Of a DNA stretch of 64,000 nucleotides, positions 7,410 to 39,619 are shown one piece after another. The notes under the pieces were generated by a model that did not search any database, was not told the DNA's origin, and was given only the letters and a program-made list of their open reading frames with translations. The position numbers were made by a program, and so were the translations under genes. Source of the DNA: a virus; IMG/VR virus record IMGVR_UViG_3300031949_000008, positions 32,001 through 96,000 of that record. The stretch is one strand, 5' to 3'. Position 1 is the stretch's first letter. Every line of letters starts with the position of its first letter.

Positions 7410-8786
7410 TTACATGCCTCTCTGAATAGGGATTTCATCTCTTTCCCTACACTTCCAAAAATCATCCATAAAATGATCCCATGTAAAATCCCATCCATGT
7501 TCTAATAAAAATTTAGCCATAAAGAAATTGACCATATCACCAACTTCCCTACTAGTCCAAATTGGCTGATATCGAAGAGTGTATTCACTCCATTCTTTAA
7601 ATGTTTGTGGCATTCTATATCCTTGATCTTTAAAATCTTCATATAGTTCACTACCAGGATATGGCCGTATAAAAAATAATTTAAATTTCATATAAGGATT
7701 AATTTTATGAGCTTCTTGTAACATTAAAATAGTATCTTTAAAATCTCCTATTTCATCAGAATCAGGAAATCCAGTCATTGTACTTAAGTCAGGAATCATA
7801 CCAAATTTAGTTATTTTTTCTACAAATTGTAATATATGGTCTTTAGTTTGATGCTTCTGTAAACGATCTAATATAACTTGGCTTCCACTTTCCGCTCCTA
7901 TAAGTATCTCTTTAATACCTGCCTTAGCTAATAATTTATATAAATCATCTGAGTAAGAAAGAGCTGCTCTTGCATGAACCAAAATAGAAATAGGTATATA
8001 ATTATACCCTCTTTTAATCCATTTTTCACAGAATTCTATAACTCGTGCTTTTTTACAAAACCATTCATCATCATCTATATTAATATGTGATAATTGTCTT
8101 TTATTCTGAAATATATAAGAAAAATCATCTATAACATTATCTATTTCCCTAAATACATATTTACGTTTTGATATAACTTTAAGACAGCAAAATGTGCAGT
8201 TTTCATAGCATCCAAAACTAGTTAAGTATCCGAAATAAGGCCCATATTTGTTTAAATCAATCATCTCAAATGGAATCTTATGAAACTTAGTAGGTAAAGA
8301 AGGACAACCTGTGTCTAAATAACCCTCTGGTTGCTTCCAGATTACTCCAGAACAAGACTTTTTATTATCGACTATATCATCTGCTAACTGAATTATATTA
8401 TGTTCAAATTGGCCTTTTACTACTATATCTACAAACGGTTCTTTAATTAATTGATCTGGAATTAATGAAGCGGCCCAACCACCCCAAACTATTGGAATAG
8501 AATTATCTATTGATTTTACATATTTAGCAAAATTACCTGCTCCTCTAAGTTGTTGCCCGATTAAACTACTAATGCCAATGAAAATAGGTTTATTCTTTAT
8601 GTAAGTATCTAATATTGCAGGATTATCTACACGAGCATCAAATAATTTAACATCATATCCTGCTTCAATTAATGGCCCTGCTAATGTTAAAATAGAAAAA
8701 GGTACACGGTGTAATCCGTCTGTTTTAATATAAGATAATTCTGGATAATATAATAATATCGTACCTTTCGACTTATTCCATCCCAT
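7410..8786 (-). CDS. cobalamin-binding radical SAM protein (class B methylase-like)
   Basis: N-terminal B12-binding domain (P.S..TLAG, IVWGG), TSFGCYENCTFC, GAESGS, GFP, PYPGS. Confidence 0.9.
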   Translation of the reverse strand: MGWNKSKGTILLYYPELSYIKTDGLHRVPFSILTLAGPLIEAGYDVKLFDARVDNPAILDTYIKNKPIFIGISSLIGQQLRGAGNFAKYVKSIDNSIPIVWGGWAASLIPDQLIKEPFVDIVVKGQFEHNIIQLADDIVDNKKSCSGVIWKQPEGYLDTGCPSLPTKFHKIPFEMIDLNKYGPYFGYLTSFGCYENCTFCCLKVISKRKYVFREIDNVIDDFSYIFQNKRQLSHINIDDDEWFCKKARVIEFCEKWIKRGYNYIPISILVHARAALSYSDDLYKLLAKAGIKEILIGAESGSQVILDRLQKHQTKDHILQFVEKITKFGMIPDLSTMTGFPDSDEIGDFKDTILMLQEAHKINPYMKFKLFFIRPYPGSELYEDFKDQGYRMPQTFKEWSEYTLRYQPIWTSREVGDMVNFFMAKFLLEHGWDFTWDHFMDDFWKCRERDEIPIQRGM

Positions 8787-9658
8787 TATTCTTTACCTAC
8801 TTTATACCTCTGGCAGAATATCCAGTTATTCTCACTTCCTGTCATATATTCATCAGACGATGTAAGATAACCAGGATCAAAATGTGAACTTAAATATAAT
8901 GATTTCTTCTCTAAATACATAGCATTATATTTAGAAGCTTTGGATATATTCTTCATATATAATACTTTAGCCAATCCTTTCTGAGGATGTTTATTTTCTT
9001 CTAATTGACATACATTCTGTTTAATAACACAATCAGACAAATAAACATTTTCTAATCCTAATTGATTTATACGGATTGGCATATCTAAATCATCACACTG
9101 TAAGTCTTCATTAAAATAACCTAATTGATCTAATACTTCACCTTTTAAAGCCCATACACATCCAACAACTCCTTGTCCTCTTGGTGATATCTGCATCCAG
9201 AAATGTGGTTCTCGTTCTTCTACTTTAACTTCCTTAAAGAACTCTCGCCTTCCATCGCTCTCCATCCAAAATGTAGGTCGTTGTGCCAATGCTGAACCAA
9301 TATCTTTATAACTTAATGCTTTTAATAACAGATGCAAAAATCCAGGAGTTTCGACTAGGCAATCATCGTCCCACTTTATATATGTCTGACCTGGTTTTCT
9401 CAATGATATTAATTGATTATGACCAAAAACGATTCCTGTATTAACCTCATTTTCTATAATAACATCAAAGTTTTTCCTATAAGTATGTATAACTTGTTTA
9501 ACTTCAGGAGTTGCATCTTGATCTAGTATAGCCCATTCAAACTCTGAACGAATAGAATGCTGTAAAATATCTAATATACATCCTAAAGTTGCTTGTTCAC
9601 GTCCTAAGACACACATTCCTATTAAAGGTTTCATTCTTTGACCGCTAATATATGACAT
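8786..9658 (-). CDS. GT-A (family 2-like) glycosyltransferase
   Basis: N.G....N, WDDD (DxD), LGYFNE, DDLD..IR; the true start may be 9634. Confidence 0.82.
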   Translation of the reverse strand: MSYISGQRMKPLIGMCVLGREQATLGCILDILQHSIRSEFEWAILDQDATPEVKQVIHTYRKNFDVIIENEVNTGIVFGHNQLISLRKPGQTYIKWDDDCLVETPGFLHLLLKALSYKDIGSALAQRPTFWMESDGRREFFKEVKVEEREPHFWMQISPRGQGVVGCVWALKGEVLDQLGYFNEDLQCDDLDMPIRINQLGLENVYLSDCVIKQNVCQLEENKHPQKGLAKVLYMKNISKASKYNAMYLEKKSLYLSSHFDPGYLTSSDEYMTGSENNWIFCQRYKVGKE

Positions 9659-10191
9659 TTAAATTTCACAAAATCTTCAGGAGACATACCTCTACTTAAT
9701 AGTTCTTTGTCATTCTTTAATTCTTCCAGTCGCTCTTCAGTAATATCTTTTACTTCTGAAAATCCAACATCTTTTAGTCGATCAATTAAGAGTTCTGGCC
9801 ACCAGAGCGAACGATGATTATCATATGGATCTTGTCCATTGCCTAAAATATTAGATATAACATATGAAAAATAATTACCACTCTTAAACATTTCTATACA
9901 TCCTTTAAAATTAGGACAAGAAATATATAATGTACCTCGTGGTACTAAAACTCTATAACAATCTTTAAATAATAACCAAAGTTCCGAATAAGTTAAATGT
10001 TCAATAAATTCTATAGTTATAATATCAGATATACTATGATCTTTATAAGGAATCCCTAGACGAAGATCACATTTAAAATCTACTGTTTGATGTTCGATAA
10101 TGTCTAAATTACGATAATTTTTATATTTATCATAGCGATGTTTTAGAGGATTTCTTCCTCCTCCTAATTCTAATTGAATGTTTGTATCCAT
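9631..10191 (-). CDS. class I SAM-dependent methyltransferase (type 11-like)
   Basis: LELGGG, NLDI, FIEHL, YRVLVPRG...CPN. Confidence 0.85.
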   Translation of the reverse strand: MDTNIQLELGGGRNPLKHRYDKYKNYRNLDIIEHQTVDFKCDLRLGIPYKDHSISDIITIEFIEHLTYSELWLLFKDCYRVLVPRGTLYISCPNFKGCIEMFKSGNYFSYVISNILGNGQDPYDNHRSLWWPELLIDRLKDVGFSEVKDITEERLEELKNDKELLSRGMSPEDFVKFKCHILAVKE

Positions 10192-31451: not shown

Positions 31452-33473
31452 TTAAAATAAGTCTACTGGCAATCGATGCATTGCAAAATATGTAAATGCA
31501 GTATTACCAAATATATAATCGTTTTCTAATGTTTTAGTATATGCTATTTTTATTGTATCACCTGGAACAAGAAATAATATAGAAAATGTATTTACTGTTT
31601 GGTATGGAGATGTTACAGCTTCATGTATGGGTCTATAAGTAGATTGATATAATATATTATTTTTATATACATGTAACCCCATAACAGGACGAGACGGAAA
31701 CCATTGTAATGATAAATAACATTGACTTATATCAGCAGAACATCCAGCAGAGGCTAGAGTTGCACTATAGCCGAATCCTTGTATACCAGATACTGAAGCA
31801 GCAGTCCAAGCTAAGCCAGTAGATGGATCAAGAGTCCAACGTTCATTATAATCTACGAAAGATGATGTCAACATAGTAGAAGTACCAAGATAATTAATAT
31901 CACCTTTTCGTAATACAGTAGCTGGTATTGTTTCAGCTTCTAAATAACATGTAGTATCACAGGTACAACCTGCTGATCCATATGTGGTATTATAACAAGT
32001 AACACAATCATATACATAACATGTAGCATTACAAGAACAAGCTGCATATCCATAACAGACATTATAACAAGTACAAGATCCTTTAATATATACATAACAT
32101 GTATTATTACAACTACAAGAGCTATCTCCATAACAGGCATTATTACAACTACAACTATATCCATAACATGCATTATTACATGTACAGTTTTCACCATAAC
32201 ATGTATTATTACATATACAACCACGCCTTCGACTTCTAAAATTTACAGTAACTACAAAAGGGCTAACTTCTGTATATAGTGTTCCTAATCCCCCTGAAAA
32301 AATATCTGTTGCACCGCATGTTTGTGTAGTATTAAAATCTGCATCATTTGCAGTTGGATAATCATCAATAGCTAAAAGATTACTTGCAGCACCAGAAACT
32401 GTCCATGTAACAATAGGAGCACCGGTCTGTAATTCTATTCTCCTAACCCCCATGTAGGTAGCATTTCCCCAATTGTCTGCAAACTTGAAGGCATAATAAC
32501 GATAGGAGGTTGTATTTGTGACTTCAATATATTTAGGATCAGAAGCATCAGCAACAGCATGCTGGTCAAAGGTAGATTGTGCTGTCGTTAGCTGTACCCA
32601 TGTACCATCATTCGCATAAACTAAATCAGCAAAATCACCAGAGGCAGTTGATCCCCAAAAAGTAAAATTTTCAACTCCACGATCTGTCTGTGTTCCGACG
32701 TGGTGGAAATTTTCATAATAAATTCGTTTTATAATTTTTTCTGAACCAAGGTCTATATGAAATCTTTGATTAGTCACAACCCCACTTTGAGACATCCAAG
32801 AATTATTTTCATAAGTTCCAGTCAAAGATTTTGCCGGATCTGTGGCAAAATAAGGCCAAGAATCTGTAGCATATTTAGTTGTGGCCTTAACATAGGTATC
32901 ATTATGAGCGGGTGGATATTGAGATCCTTGTCCTGGAGGTATTCCTGTAGCTGATGTCACACTACTTGTAAGTTGTGTTCCAGATGCTACCATTGTAAGT
33001 TGTCCTATAAGTAAATAATATCCAGATGCTAATGCTGTAAATATACCACTTGTATGATCATATTCATTTAAAGTATCATAATCCTCTGTATCAAAAACTA
33101 AAGTATTAGCAGATGCTCCTGCAGTTACTATCACAGTATTTGTACAGGCTGCTTTAAATCTAGACCAATAATTCTGACTCAATCGTAGCCAATTACTACC
33201 ACTATATTTAACTAATACACCTAATGTAGTATCAAATGCCAATGCTCCAGACATTGGACTAGTTAATGCAGCAATTTGAGTTGTTGTTCCCTCATATATT
33301 GCGCCAACAGAGCCAATCCTATGTTCACCAGATAACCCAACACTACCAGATGCTGGACTATAATGTTCTATATTATATGCATCTTCGATAGCAGAAAAAT
33401 TCTGTTGTAGGATATTGGGAATTTGTTTAATTTCATTTTCACTATTAGGGTATACCTTTTTCCATTGTCCCAT
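31452..33473 (-). CDS. tail-fibre-like protein: split C1q-like domain with inserted F5/8C-like domain and CxCxxxCY repeat array
   Basis: N-terminus is paralogous to the two upstream genes; FDTE.YD...EYD...G.FTA..SGYY; discoidin-like IDLG..K.I...YRYY..F...ELQ; Cys array. Confidence 0.75.
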   Translation of the reverse strand: MGQWKKVYPNSENEIKQIPNILQQNFSAIEDAYNIEHYSPASGSVGLSGEHRIGSVGAIYEGTTTQIAALTSPMSGALAFDTTLGVLVKYSGSNWLRLSQNYWSRFKAACTNTVIVTAGASANTLVFDTEDYDTLNEYDHTSGIFTALASGYYLLIGQLTMVASGTQLTSSVTSATGIPPGQGSQYPPAHNDTYVKATTKYATDSWPYFATDPAKSLTGTYENNSWMSQSGVVTNQRFHIDLGSEKIIKRIYYENFHHVGTQTDRGVENFTFWGSTASGDFADLVYANDGTWVQLTTAQSTFDQHAVADASDPKYIEVTNTTSYRYYAFKFADNWGNATYMGVRRIELQTGAPIVTWTVSGAASNLLAIDDYPTANDADFNTTQTCGATDIFSGGLGTLYTEVSPFVVTVNFRSRRRGCICNNTCYGENCTCNNACYGYSCSCNNACYGDSSCSCNNTCYVYIKGSCTCYNVCYGYAACSCNATCYVYDCVTCYNTTYGSAGCTCDTTCYLEAETIPATVLRKGDINYLGTSTMLTSSFVDYNERWTLDPSTGLAWTAASVSGIQGFGYSATLASAGCSADISQCYLSLQWFPSRPVMGLHVYKNNILYQSTYRPIHEAVTSPYQTVNTFSILFLVPGDTIKIAYTKTLENDYIFGNTAFTYFAMHRLPVDLF
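31944..32219 (-). repeat. eight tandem Cys-rich peptide repeats (CxCxxxCY)
   Basis: CICNNTCY, CTCNNACY, CSCNNACY, CSCNNTCY, CTCYNVCY, CSCNATCY, CVTCYNTTY, CTCDTTCY; 23 Cys in 92 aa. Confidence 0.97.
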
Positions 33474-34922: not shown

Positions 34923-35273
34923 TTAGTTCTCTAGATAATGTTTTATATTCTCTATTTTGTCTATATAAGGTTCAAAATGACCAAGCATTAAATTACATGC
35001 ACGATGTAAAAGTCCTCGTATTTTATTAGTATCATGGTCATGGTCTACAACAGCTGAAGAAAAGTCAAGAGGTTGTTCACAAATAGGGCATATCCCATTT
35101 TGAGATTTCCATATATTCATATACTCATCTTGTGTTAGACCATAGGAATATAATATTTTACGCCATTTGTTATAATCTTTATTTGCAACATACCATTTAC
35201 GAGAATTTTTGGTAATTTTATCTTTATGTTCTTTATAATATTGTTTTGCTTCTATTTTAGTTTTGAAGGGCAT
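34923..35273 (-). CDS. endonuclease VII-like homing endonuclease
   Basis: YGLT...QNGICPIC...VDHDH...IRGLLH..CN. Confidence 0.88.
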   Translation of the reverse strand: MPFKTKIEAKQYYKEHKDKITKNSRKWYVANKDYNKWRKILYSYGLTQDEYMNIWKSQNGICPICEQPLDFSSAVVDHDHDTNKIRGLLHRACNLMLGHFEPYIDKIENIKHYLEN

Positions 35274-36262
35274 TATTTATTTTCCCACCGTGTATTTAAT
35301 TTCATAAGTAAAGGAAATAATTTCTTAAATTCTTCACAAAAAGGACTCTTATGTCCATACTCACCAAAGGTGAGCTTTTGAACATAAGGGCATCCAGCCT
35401 GACAAAGAGTTACCCATTCACAGTCATGACATTCTGGTATATTCTTAGCACTCCATCTTTGAGGACATTTTAAATCACTCCAATGTATATGAGTATCTAT
35501 ATGTCCAATTACTGTATCTTTGTCAGGATTACAACTTCTTAATGTTCCATCAGGATCTATAATCACTAACCACCGACCACAGGAATACGGATTTTTCACA
35601 CTTTTCCAAGATGGGTATGTAGATTCCACAATCCAGTTAGGCCAGATTGGTCGTGGAGAGGCCAATAAAATTTCTAAAACTTCCTTCATTTGCTTTCCAT
35701 ATTCTTTTACATATTCAGAATCTTTTCCACCATCATATAATCTATTAATTCTCATTTGACAATGATGCTTAACTGCCAATTGAGCTAAATTAGTAATCCT
35801 TGGCATGTTAACTTTATTCAATACTATTGAAAGAGTACAACCACCACATATGGCTTTAATCTGGCAAATTTTATCTTCTATTCGTGCCAAACTGTCATAT
35901 GTGGGATTCAGTGCTATTTTTATTCTTCGCACTTTAAATACTTTTAAAATATCCTTTGTTAAAAGATCACCATTTGTATGAAATATATGACCATCAGGAG
36001 GTAGAGGTGTCACCCACCCTATGTTCGATTCCATCTGGTCTACTAGATATAATACAGTATCTACAACATTTAATGGTTCTCCACCAAGAAATGACACCCT
36101 GAGATGTTCAACTTTCTCTTCAATACAAATATTTTTAAGCCAATTAATTGCTTTATCTGCTATTTCTATAGACATATTTTCATTGACTGATGGATTGTAG
36201 CAACCATCACATCCCCTATGACATATATTTGTAGGAAAAAAGAATACCATTAAATTATGCAT
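35273..36262 (-). CDS. radical SAM/SPASM-domain protein 2
   Basis: CHRGCDGC, GGEPL, TNG.LL; SPASM Cys pattern CG...DG...C...CHDC.....CQAGC...C. Confidence 0.92.
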   Translation of the reverse strand: MHNLMVFFFPTNICHRGCDGCYNPSVNENMSIEIADKAINWLKNICIEEKVEHLRVSFLGGEPLNVVDTVLYLVDQMESNIGWVTPLPPDGHIFHTNGDLLTKDILKVFKVRRIKIALNPTYDSLARIEDKICQIKAICGGCTLSIVLNKVNMPRITNLAQLAVKHHCQMRINRLYDGGKDSEYVKEYGKQMKEVLEILLASPRPIWPNWIVESTYPSWKSVKNPYSCGRWLVIIDPDGTLRSCNPDKDTVIGHIDTHIHWSDLKCPQRWSAKNIPECHDCEWVTLCQAGCPYVQKLTFGEYGHKSPFCEEFKKLFPLLMKLNTRWENK

Positions 36263-37602: not shown

Positions 37603-38396
37603 TATTTCTCATAGTCTATCTCCTCAATTACTATGATGCCTTCATCTGTTGGAAATGTAAACTGTGCAACCTCTAAACGACCTGGAACTAGACCACCTTC
37701 AAATACCAAAATATCTTTAATTTTACATGTATTTAATACATATGCATCATTTAATTCCTGTACAAGTTTGTCATTTTTACCTATTTTATATCTATCTTTA
37801 GCGCCATCAAGCATATATCTTATTCTATTTATAAAATTATTATACATAGATGGTATTTTATTAAAAGAACTTTGTTCTCTAATTTTTGTTATTGAACTTT
37901 TAATAACTTTAGGAAAGATTTCTATATCAACACTATTTCCTAATTTACTCACAGATTTTTGAAAAAATGATGCAATATCTGGTCCTTTGATAATAATATC
38001 ATTTCTACTAACAGTTGAATGTTGAAAAGCCATTGCACCCATTACTATAGCAGTAGCTCTTTGAATATAATCATCAGTCAATAAAAAATCTTTATATAAT
38101 GATACAAATGCAGCAGCTTTTTGAGCCATTGGTGCTCTCCAACTTTCGTCTATTTTAAATGCATTTTGATCTTCAACTATAAATCCTTTATCTATAATAT
38201 CTTGTACCATTTTTTGTGATTTCTTTTCAGGAGCAAAACCCAAACCTAGTGTTAAATGGTTTAACCAATCACGAGGTCGTCCTACAACTTTTACTACATA
38301 TGTTCCAGGAAATGTTTTAGCAAAATCTAATAATGCCTGATGTCCAGCATGTAGACCTTCAGAATGATTTGCTATCGGGACTATTACTCTACCCAT
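37602..38396 (-). CDS. divergent PanC-like (HxGH nucleotidyltransferase-fold) ligase
   Basis: GLHAGHQAL (HIGH motif), KGPD and IREQSS at positions matching PanC GEKD and LALSSRN. Confidence 0.6.
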   Translation of the reverse strand: MGRVIVPIANHSEGLHAGHQALLDFAKTFPGTYVVKVVGRPRDWLNHLTLGLGFAPEKKSQKMVQDIIDKGFIVEDQNAFKIDESWRAPMAQKAAAFVSLYKDFLLTDDYIQRATAIVMGAMAFQHSTVSRNDIIIKGPDIASFFQKSVSKLGNSVDIEIFPKVIKSSITKIREQSSFNKIPSMYNNFINRIRYMLDGAKDRYKIGKNDKLVQELNDAYVLNTCKIKDILVFEGGLVPGRLEVAQFTFPTDEGIIVIEEIDYEK

Positions 38397-38398
38397 AT

Positions 38399-39619
38399 TT
38401 AACCCCTTCGCTCCAGTGCAGAAACACGATTATTCAAATCTGATATTAATAATGCTATCGTTTCCAAAGAAATCGTGGGAGGATTGTCTATTACTGGACC
38501 TGTATAATGTTCAAAATTGCAAATACAGTTTTTATCTTGTGATATAGCCTTATCACCTATTTTTTCTTTATAATACATTGATATCTTTTTTTGTACTTCG
38601 ACATATTTACATAATCCTATATGAGGAATTTTTATATCACCAGTAAAGTCAAAGTTGACCGCATAACATCCCGAATTGCAAGGAGTATCTTTAAGCCTTG
38701 CACATCCATTACATTGATTATGAGAAAAATCTATAAATGACTGTCTAAATTCTGATCTAGTAATTCCATGATCAATATGACCAATACAAATTTCTTTATC
38801 TTGCCATGCTCGTTTATCGTCAAATTTGAAAAATCGGTGACAGGGCGCTATGGCTCCATCAATATCTATTCCAACATAATTACGTCCTCCACCACATGGA
38901 TATTTGCTATTATCAGCTGCCTGATATGATTTAAAATGTTCTATTTCAATAATATGACCATTATCACGATAAGTTTTTAATAGATCTACTATCTTATATC
39001 CTTGTTCTTCAAAGATTTTCCACTTTTCATCTGTCCATTTTGTCTCATAAACTGGAGAAAAGATTATAGAATTAAAACCAAAATCGATTAAGTACTTAAC
39101 ATCATTATATAAGTTATGAATGCTATCAGCCGTGAGGCCTAGTCTTGGTCTATAGAATGGCCATCTCTCTAATACTTTTTCCATATTTTTCATAATGGTA
39201 GCATGAGAACCCTGACCATCTTTAAATCTTCTATAGAAATCATGTGTTTCTTGTGTACCATCTAAACTGACTAAGAAAAATATCTTATGTTCATCTAAAA
39301 AATCAAATTTCTCTTCAGTCAATAATGTACCATTAGTCGTACCACCAAAAGTAACAGGCACCACAACCTGTACACTTTTCTCCTTTGCGTAAAGAACAAT
39401 CTTTTGTAATAATGACCACTCTAGTAATGGTTCGCCTCCCCAAAAACTAATTTCAACAGGATTAACTTTATCAGCATTTTTGAAAAGAAAATCTACAGCT
39501 TTATAAGCAATTTCTTCTGACATACGGCCAACTCTACATCCATATGTAAAACAGTATGAACATGCTAAGTTACAGTTTCTAGTTAAATTTAATGATGCAC
39601 GTGTTATTGGATAGTTCAT
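38399..39619 (-). CDS. radical SAM/SPASM peptide-maturase-like protein 1
   Basis: CNLACSYC, FWGGEPLL, TTNGTLL, SLDG...HD..R; SPASM CGGG...G...PCHRF...C..C......C..GC.A.N...C. Confidence 0.94.
   Translation of the reverse strand: MNYPITRASLNLTRNCNLACSYCFTYGCRVGRMSEEIAYKAVDFLFKNADKVNPVEISFWGGEPLLEWSLLQKIVLYAKEKSVQVVVPVTFGGTTNGTLLTEEKFDFLDEHKIFFLVSLDGTQETHDFYRRFKDGQGSHATIMKNMEKVLERWPFYRPRLGLTADSIHNLYNDVKYLIDFGFNSIIFSPVYETKWTDEKWKIFEEQGYKIVDLLKTYRDNGHIIEIEHFKSYQAADNSKYPCGGGRNYVGIDIDGAIAPCHRFFKFDDKRAWQDKEICIGHIDHGITRSEFRQSFIDFSHNQCNGCARLKDTPCNSGCYAVNFDFTGDIKIPHIGLCKYVEVQKKISMYYKEKIGDKAISQDKNCICNFEHYTGPVIDNPPTISLETIALLISDLNNRVSALERRG

Follow-up and report, generated by a model that had tools for sequence, protein, structure and literature searches.

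The radical SAM/SPASM enzyme rSAM1 ended in a 61-residue C-terminal extension past its SPASM domain, in which a short cysteine unit (CICNFEHY) was followed by an amphipathic helix with a trimerisation motif. Across the enzyme family this unit had its skeleton in common with the cysteine repeats of a fibre protein from the same gene cassette, the presumed substrate. In our preferred reading, to which we assign a probability of roughly 0.4, the extension both oligomerises the enzyme and tethers a substrate-like module to it in place of leader/RRE recognition, with the unit serving as a substrate mimic.

Genomic context of rSAM1

rSAM1 was encoded in the window (the whole 64,000-nucleotide stretch of DNA analysed here), which belongs to a viral record of 110 kb that was 98% complete. 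The gene was part of a cassette within the virion module, all genes of which were on the minus strand:

38399-39619, minus strand: rSAM1, open reading frame of 406 amino acids
37602-38396, minus strand: HxGH protein, directly after rSAM1 in cassette order
between the HxGH protein and rSAM2, minus strand: a 218-amino-acid protein, then a GNAT-like protein
35273-36262, minus strand: rSAM2, a second radical SAM/SPASM enzyme (open reading frame, Pfam and NCBIfam), tail absent
34923-35273, minus strand: endonuclease VII gene (PF02945), between rSAM2 and the fibre paralogues
between the endonuclease VII gene and the 673-amino-acid fibre protein, minus strand: two C1q-like paralogues
31452-33473, minus strand: 673-amino-acid fibre protein, carrying CxC(N/Y)xxCY units
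31944-32219, minus strand: presumed substrate, the array of CxC(N/Y)xxCY units in the fibre protein (seven strict units and one degenerate)

The whole cassette was kept in the same order in the close viral loci L001, L002 and L007, and rSAM2 was conserved in L001, L002, L004/L005 and L007. The endonuclease VII gene is probably a mobile insertion, as it had no counterpart in the syntenic L001, L002 and L007. At the other end of the cassette, the last codons of rSAM1 (…CTG GAG CGA AGG GGT TAA, window 38394-38415) included GGAG/AAGGGG, a Shine-Dalgarno-like signal for the following gene, which has its ATG 2 nt past the rSAM1 stop; the terminal ERRG of the enzyme may be constrained by this signal.

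Units of the fibre array were spaced by about 11-12 residues. In many loci, CxCNxxCY array proteins were encoded between a few bases and about 4.5 kb from the enzyme gene, and near rSAM1 homologues the arrays took two forms, either embedded in a fibre or found as small stand-alone proteins consisting almost wholly of repeats. Stand-alone CxCNxxC(Y/H)GY proteins (L009, L093-L095, L099, L123, L131, L132 and L142; for example, L095:102-734) were located directly upstream of the rSAM1 homologue and had a conserved ...LVSWIGWE or ...VWFFWR end.

Catalytic core and enzyme class

The catalytic part of rSAM1 contained two cysteine-rich regions:

39551-39574, minus strand: CX3CX2C radical SAM cluster motif (C16, C20, C23), from the sequence and conserved in the family
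38609-38896, minus strand: SPASM region with eight cysteines (C242, C260, C278, C303, C306, C314, C318, C337), from CteB and anSME alignments and a cysteine occupancy table

Going by its motifs and profile matches, rSAM1 belongs with the CteB/PapB-type radical SAM/SPASM enzymes, in a family that is related to the curated ones but separate. Pfam matched Radical_SAM (E 2e-15), Fer4_12 and SPASM, the last at 18 bits and so short of its cut-off of 21.5. All eight SPASM cysteines were conserved according to the CteB alignment and the cysteine table, in line with the 7-8 expected for two auxiliary clusters. Residues 8-331 matched positions 5-329 of the 330 in the NCBIfam PapB model (NF047865), at 261 bits against a cut-off of 340, and rSAM1 was likewise below cut-off for the SCIFF maturase (TIGR03974, 160 against 425) and QhpD (TIGR03906, 164.5 against 453 bits) models. 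Among the family models, that of the PapB-type ranthipeptide maturases ranked best for rSAM1, followed by those for nif11-peptide, QhpD and SCIFF maturases, each with a score under its curated cut-off. CteB was the best solved relative by both sequence (5wgg, E 1e-32) and fold (Foldseek TM 0.77 to 5why).

Among known SPASM thioether maturases, substrate recognition depends on an RRE-leader pair. rSAM1 lacked an N-terminal RRE, since it begins directly at the catalytic core: residue 9 paired with CteB residue 100, and homologues started at the same point. The start codon is fixed by the upstream gene, which ends at 39616. Several homologues were 554-1096 amino acids long (P0079, located at L008:1449-3119, P0124, P0126, P0131 and P0133) and look like cases of inteins inside the rSAM gene; P0079 had the Pfam intein splicing domain PF14890, and P0124 had extra sequence directly after the CX3CX2C motif.

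A conserved two-unit module in the C-terminal tail

The extension was outside the known cores, as the PapB model (330 positions) was exhausted by residue 331 and the CteB alignment stopped at residue 339. Translation of 38399-38560 (minus strand) ends in ...SQDKNCICNFEHYTGPVIDNPPTISLETIALLISDLNNRVSALERRG followed by the stop codon (38399-38401), and the tail sequence reads ...KNCICNFEHYTGPVIDNPPTISLETIALLISDLNNRVSALERRG. From the last shared element onward, its layout was:

38558-38620, minus strand: post-SPASM helix, residues 334-354, the last element common with CteB-type enzymes (AF2, high pLDDT)
38528-38557, minus strand: variable linker, residues 355-364, the site of M1 or an SCMPY remnant in relatives (tail alignment; pLDDT about 50)
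38495-38527, minus strand: array-like unit M2, CICNFEHYTGP, residues 365-375 (translation, family alignment)
38468-38494, minus strand: second linker, residues 376-384 (low confidence; pLDDT below 50 at 377-382)
38408-38467, minus strand: terminal amphipathic helix, residues 385-404, three heptads (AF2 pLDDT 85-89; helix HMM)
38411-38428, minus strand: R-h-x-x-h-E trimerisation motif RVSALE, residues 398-403 (motif definition PMC3653964)

A first-pass annotation of the window had placed CICNFEHY at 38504-38527, after the SPASM domain, and this was exact: the motif comprises C365-Y372 (38527-38504) and is found beyond both the last SPASM cysteine (C337) and the post-SPASM helix. AF2 modelled residues 355-384 of the window enzyme with low confidence (block means 46-74). 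Tail units of the window enzyme and of P0059, a relative with the longer tail described below, had pLDDT values of about 50-58, with a confident terminal helix in both, and the P0059 tail otherwise showed a small hairpin only. Low confidence of this kind fits a flexible or a cofactor-dependent segment alike.

We compared about 120 relatives with 31-68% identity to rSAM1, of which 113 had scorable tails. Four modules were apparent in the tail alignment: M1, with the consensus s-C-(I/V)-C-(Y/N/H)-N-M-C-Y-(L/A)-E-(G/N)-T-x-x-E-(I/V); M2, with C-x-C-(Y/N/H)-(N/F)-x-x-Y-(T/S)-G-(P); often (L/I/V)ARPL; and the terminal helix. Together, the two units followed the pattern CxC(Y/N)NMCY-E(G/N)T...CxCYNxNYTG with five invariant cysteines. 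A CxC...Y unit was present at the tail position in 99 of 113 relatives, close as well as distant, so the motif did not disappear among close homologues, as it should have if the first-pass annotation had been mistaken about it. M1 and M2 occurred together in 66 tails, M2 alone in 25 (the type seen in the window) and SCMPY with M2 in eight, and the remaining 14 had no cysteine unit. Among 62 homologues, C365, C367, Y372 and G374 were at least 90% conserved. In the long form (67 sequences), C351, C353, N355, C357, Y358, C377 and C379 were invariant and E360, T362, E365 and Y384 were at least 90% conserved, a level that matches the catalytic core. Relatives nearest to the window enzyme (58-68% identity) had a nearly invariant C-(I/V)-C-N-F-x-x-Y-(T/N)-G-P between two linkers that varied freely, indicating purifying selection on the unit.

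A FastTree phylogeny built on the core only placed the two-unit form on either side of the midpoint root, and this form appears to be ancestral. The tree requires no fewer than seven losses of M1, one of them in the clade of the window enzyme (three rows, support 98). Tail alignment and tree thus indicate that CICNFEHY is the retained second unit, with the third cysteine absent, of an ancestral two-unit module. When 1.84 billion representative proteins were searched with an M1-M2 profile, 29 matched; the 27 strongest were C-termini or fragments of these enzymes, and the other two were large unrelated proteins with weak and partial matches. Within this protein set, the tail module occurs only at the C-termini of rSAM1-type enzymes. 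The repeat arrays gave no significant match to the profile in the same search, and a word-index search with one long tail as query returned only the query. No match to the 61-residue tail was found in Pfam or PHROGs, fibre chaperones included, which leaves the likeness to chaperone ends drawn in the first-pass annotation as an analogy and not a homology.

One alternative explanation is that the cysteine units form an accessory metal or iron-sulfur mini-domain, either structural or acting as an extra electron relay, that they resemble array units because the arrays, too, use this CxC...C arrangement to bind metal, and that the helix serves only to oligomerise the enzyme. CxC motifs are typical of metal-thiolate proteins. 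The five invariant cysteines of the long form, with glutamate, threonine and tyrosine conserved to the level of the catalytic core, would suit such a site, as would a module that is a distinct domain unmatched by the arrays at profile level and the low AF2 confidence, which is common for cofactor-dependent folds. However, M1 was lost repeatedly with M2 retained, and the window enzyme has just two tail cysteines, making a single obligate five-cysteine centre unlikely. Nor did the tail match any known iron-sulfur or zinc family in Pfam, and enzymes without tail cysteines had no compensating change in their core cysteines. We therefore regard a metal site as unlikely overall. The core cysteine pattern did not differ between the 99 enzymes with tail cysteines and the 14 without, so the tail cysteines are unlikely to be obligatory cluster ligands. 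The first-pass annotation had considered cluster ligation for them alongside self-modification and autoinhibition, which are putative roles.

Tail units compared with the fibre repeat arrays

To the fibre repeats, the tail units were related by a skeleton common to both at family level, C-x-C-(N/Y)-x-x-(C)-Y. Tails were scored with a matrix derived from 195 repeat units, all taken from loci other than the window. The window's own tail unit, KNCICNFEHYTG, reached 2.9 bits compared to 31-41 for the seven clear fibre units, and ranked ninth of 22,720 scanned windows and second among non-fibre matches. Of 118 homologue tails, 53 scored more than 20 bits, against a 99th percentile of 8.8 in 1,605 control ORFs. 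As a sequence comparison, the likeness between tail and fibre is thus marginal from the window alone and clear across the family. The best non-fibre score in the window belonged to TPCNSGCYAV (38561-38596; rSAM1 residues ~342-353 in ORF numbering), a SPASM segment conserved as TPC(H/N)GGCY that scored 8-11 bits; its resemblance to array units is probably a trivial C...CY likeness.

The units nevertheless differed from array repeats at defined positions. Enzyme units had I/V at position 2 and M at position 6 where arrays had S/T and T/S, respectively; position 5 was always N, and positions 9-12 were (L/A)E(G/N)T compared to GY.. in arrays. The tail units are best described as a distinct conserved subtype, not as copied fibre repeats. 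Array units without the third cysteine do exist (CSCNNTNHGY, CYNTTYGS) and resemble M2. The first-pass annotation had aligned CICNFEHY with the first fibre repeat, and while the common skeleton upholds this at family level, the specific identity, an Ile at position 2, is no more than suggestive. The first array unit followed RRG-C(I/V)C..(T/S)CY-GE (window 32183-32221, fibre residues ~418-430; L007:15746-17278). In the window, L002, L007 and L013, no other unit of the same array was as M1-like, a distinction not seen in stand-alone arrays; this first unit may serve for entry or recognition.

Enzyme and array were usually neighbours, and this, with the common skeleton, agrees with the earlier idea that a shared motif links enzyme and target, except that the tail is not a copy of a repeat. 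Across the homologue loci compared, tail units did not visibly covary with the arrays near them, a check that the first-pass annotation had suggested. Where at least 8 kb of flank was available, an array accompanied eight of nine enzymes with tail cysteines and two of five without, a weak trend in a small sample of loci that are not independent. Enzymes with cysteine-less tails were found beside arrays in L106 and L111, and also in L008 and L006 if shorter arrays are counted. The tail unit therefore seems to be accessory and not essential, given that 14 of 113 relatives lack it, some of them adjoining arrays, and that M1 was lost repeatedly.

A second explanation is that the cysteine unit of the window enzyme is a decaying remnant of the two-unit module and that only the terminal helix is functional. 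M1 has been deleted from this enzyme and repeatedly elsewhere, the remaining unit scored just 2.9 bits on the array matrix, and some relatives have lost all cysteine units. A decaying unit would not be expected to stay nearly invariant in the nearest relatives between linkers that are free to vary, and we consider decay improbable. Comparably improbable, if not slightly more so, is a genuine substrate role in cis, in which the enzyme would cross-link its own tail unit for stability or as a priming turnover. Tail units do have the skeleton of array units, M1 of the long form keeps all three cysteines, the asparagine and the tyrosine, and the tether, flexible in the models, would be long enough to reach the active site. 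Against this, the Ser/Thr positions of true units are systematically different in enzyme units, the third cysteine is missing from the unit in the window, and a self-substrate used for a single turnover gives no evident benefit. To our knowledge, there is no precedent for a self-substrate among SPASM maturases. A coincidental likeness of two cysteine-rich sequences is close to refuted: the window score was marginal, with ~0.1 such matches expected among five cassette proteins, but the family-wide match was far above controls and enzymes and arrays are genomically linked.

The terminal helix

The heptad helix proposed in the first-pass annotation was recovered by AF2 as residues 385-404, with three heptads in the register L(a)..I(d)...I(a)..L(d)..R(g)V(a)..L(d)E(e) and L/I, I/L and V/L at successive a/d positions. 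RVSALE (398-403) matches Arg(g)-h(a)-x-x-h(d)-Glu(e) exactly. R-h-x-x-h-E is a trimer motif of short parallel three-stranded coiled coils, though not fully trimer-specific (PMC3653964). It occurred within the last 60 residues of 55 of 113 homologues compared to 18 of 1,153 control ORFs (1.6%), and elsewhere in the protein in only four of the 113. A helix HMM run over the proteins of the loci matched rSAM1 homologues only and found no partner helix in other locus proteins, which makes a homo-oligomer the simplest reading. The helix accompanied stand-alone as well as fibre-embedded arrays and was missing from some fibre-linked enzymes; it is thus not tied to a trimeric fibre, onto which it had been suggested to dock.

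In L002, adjacent rSAM1 paralogues divided the modules between them. One (8657-9874) had the terminal helix with R-hxxhE only and no cysteine units, and the other (L002:9983-11239) had M1 and M2, ended at ARRLI and had no helix. This split suggests that the modules function independently of each other or together in a hetero-oligomer.

Possible mode of substrate engagement and known systems

If the extension indeed pairs oligomerisation with a tethered mimic, it would be a substrate-engagement device for a leaderless array buried in a large fibre protein, standing in for leader and RRE. The enzyme, which is presumed to cross-link the cysteine-repeat array of the fibre and probably does, would probably form a parallel homotrimer through its terminal helix. 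On its flexible linker, the array-like unit would occupy the peptide groove of its own enzyme or lie close to auxiliary cluster I, where it may gate or prime the site until real array units displace it or pair with it. In CteB, auxiliary cluster I has an open iron to which a substrate cysteine binds. Enzyme units keep the Cys/Asn/Tyr skeleton and swap the Ser/Thr positions for Ile/Val and Met, as we conjecture would be expected of a mimic that binds and is left unmodified. A further and distinctly tentative proposal, which we think doubtful, is that rSAM1 is a natural leader-free maturase in which the tethered repeat-unit mimic and the trimerising coil replace the RRE and allow processive cross-linking of an array in a folded phage structural protein.

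Like CteB (SCIFF maturase, 5WGG/5WHY) and the PapB-family ranthipeptide maturases, rSAM1 has a radical SAM core, a SPASM domain with two auxiliary-cluster cysteine sets and a cysteine-rich substrate encoded alongside. It differs from them in scoring below every curated family cut-off, in lacking the N-terminal RRE, in having as presumed substrate an internal array of a 673-amino-acid virion protein instead of a leader-bearing peptide, and in its C-terminal extension of array-like units and trimer-type helix, which neither the PapB model nor the CteB alignment covers.

Tethering of a substrate- or recognition-like element within the enzyme chain is known from kinase pseudosubstrate segments and engineered leader-in-cis RiPP enzymes. 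The rSAM1 tail would be a candidate natural case in a radical SAM enzyme, mimicking the core repeat and not the leader. Protein-level thioether cross-linking by SPASM enzymes has been described for QhpD/QhpC and, since 2026, for CrpC/CrpA; in both, a ranthisynthase-like rSAM/SPASM enzyme acts on a cysteine-rich protein, and CrpA too has a repeated cysteine motif (PMC13692751). Its repeats are C-X-X-Q/D with 17 residues, compared to the 11-12-residue CxCNxxCY units of the phage arrays. QhpD engages its leader via an RRE, and the same domain is predicted in CrpC (PMC13692751), so an enzyme without an RRE needs another device for a protein substrate. In contrast to both, the phage family has neither leader nor RRE and is found in a viral, virion-structural setting. 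The terminal helix resembles coronin-1-type trimeric coiled coils in having R-h-x-x-h-E in register with the a/d positions of a short C-terminal helix (PMC3653964), but it is only about three heptads long and its assembly is predicted from the motif.

In a literature search we found no phage rSAM enzyme acting on fibres and no maturase with a substrate-like tail. There are very few validated examples of RiPP-type engagement of large leaderless proteins (QhpD, and CrpC in 2026), and in the rSAM1 family a candidate device for it is well delimited and simple to delete, namely a substrate-like unit plus a trimer-type coil. Because natural variants lack either part, the question of engagement is directly testable. 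The family also marks a viral lineage in which radical chemistry probably cross-links the virion fibres.
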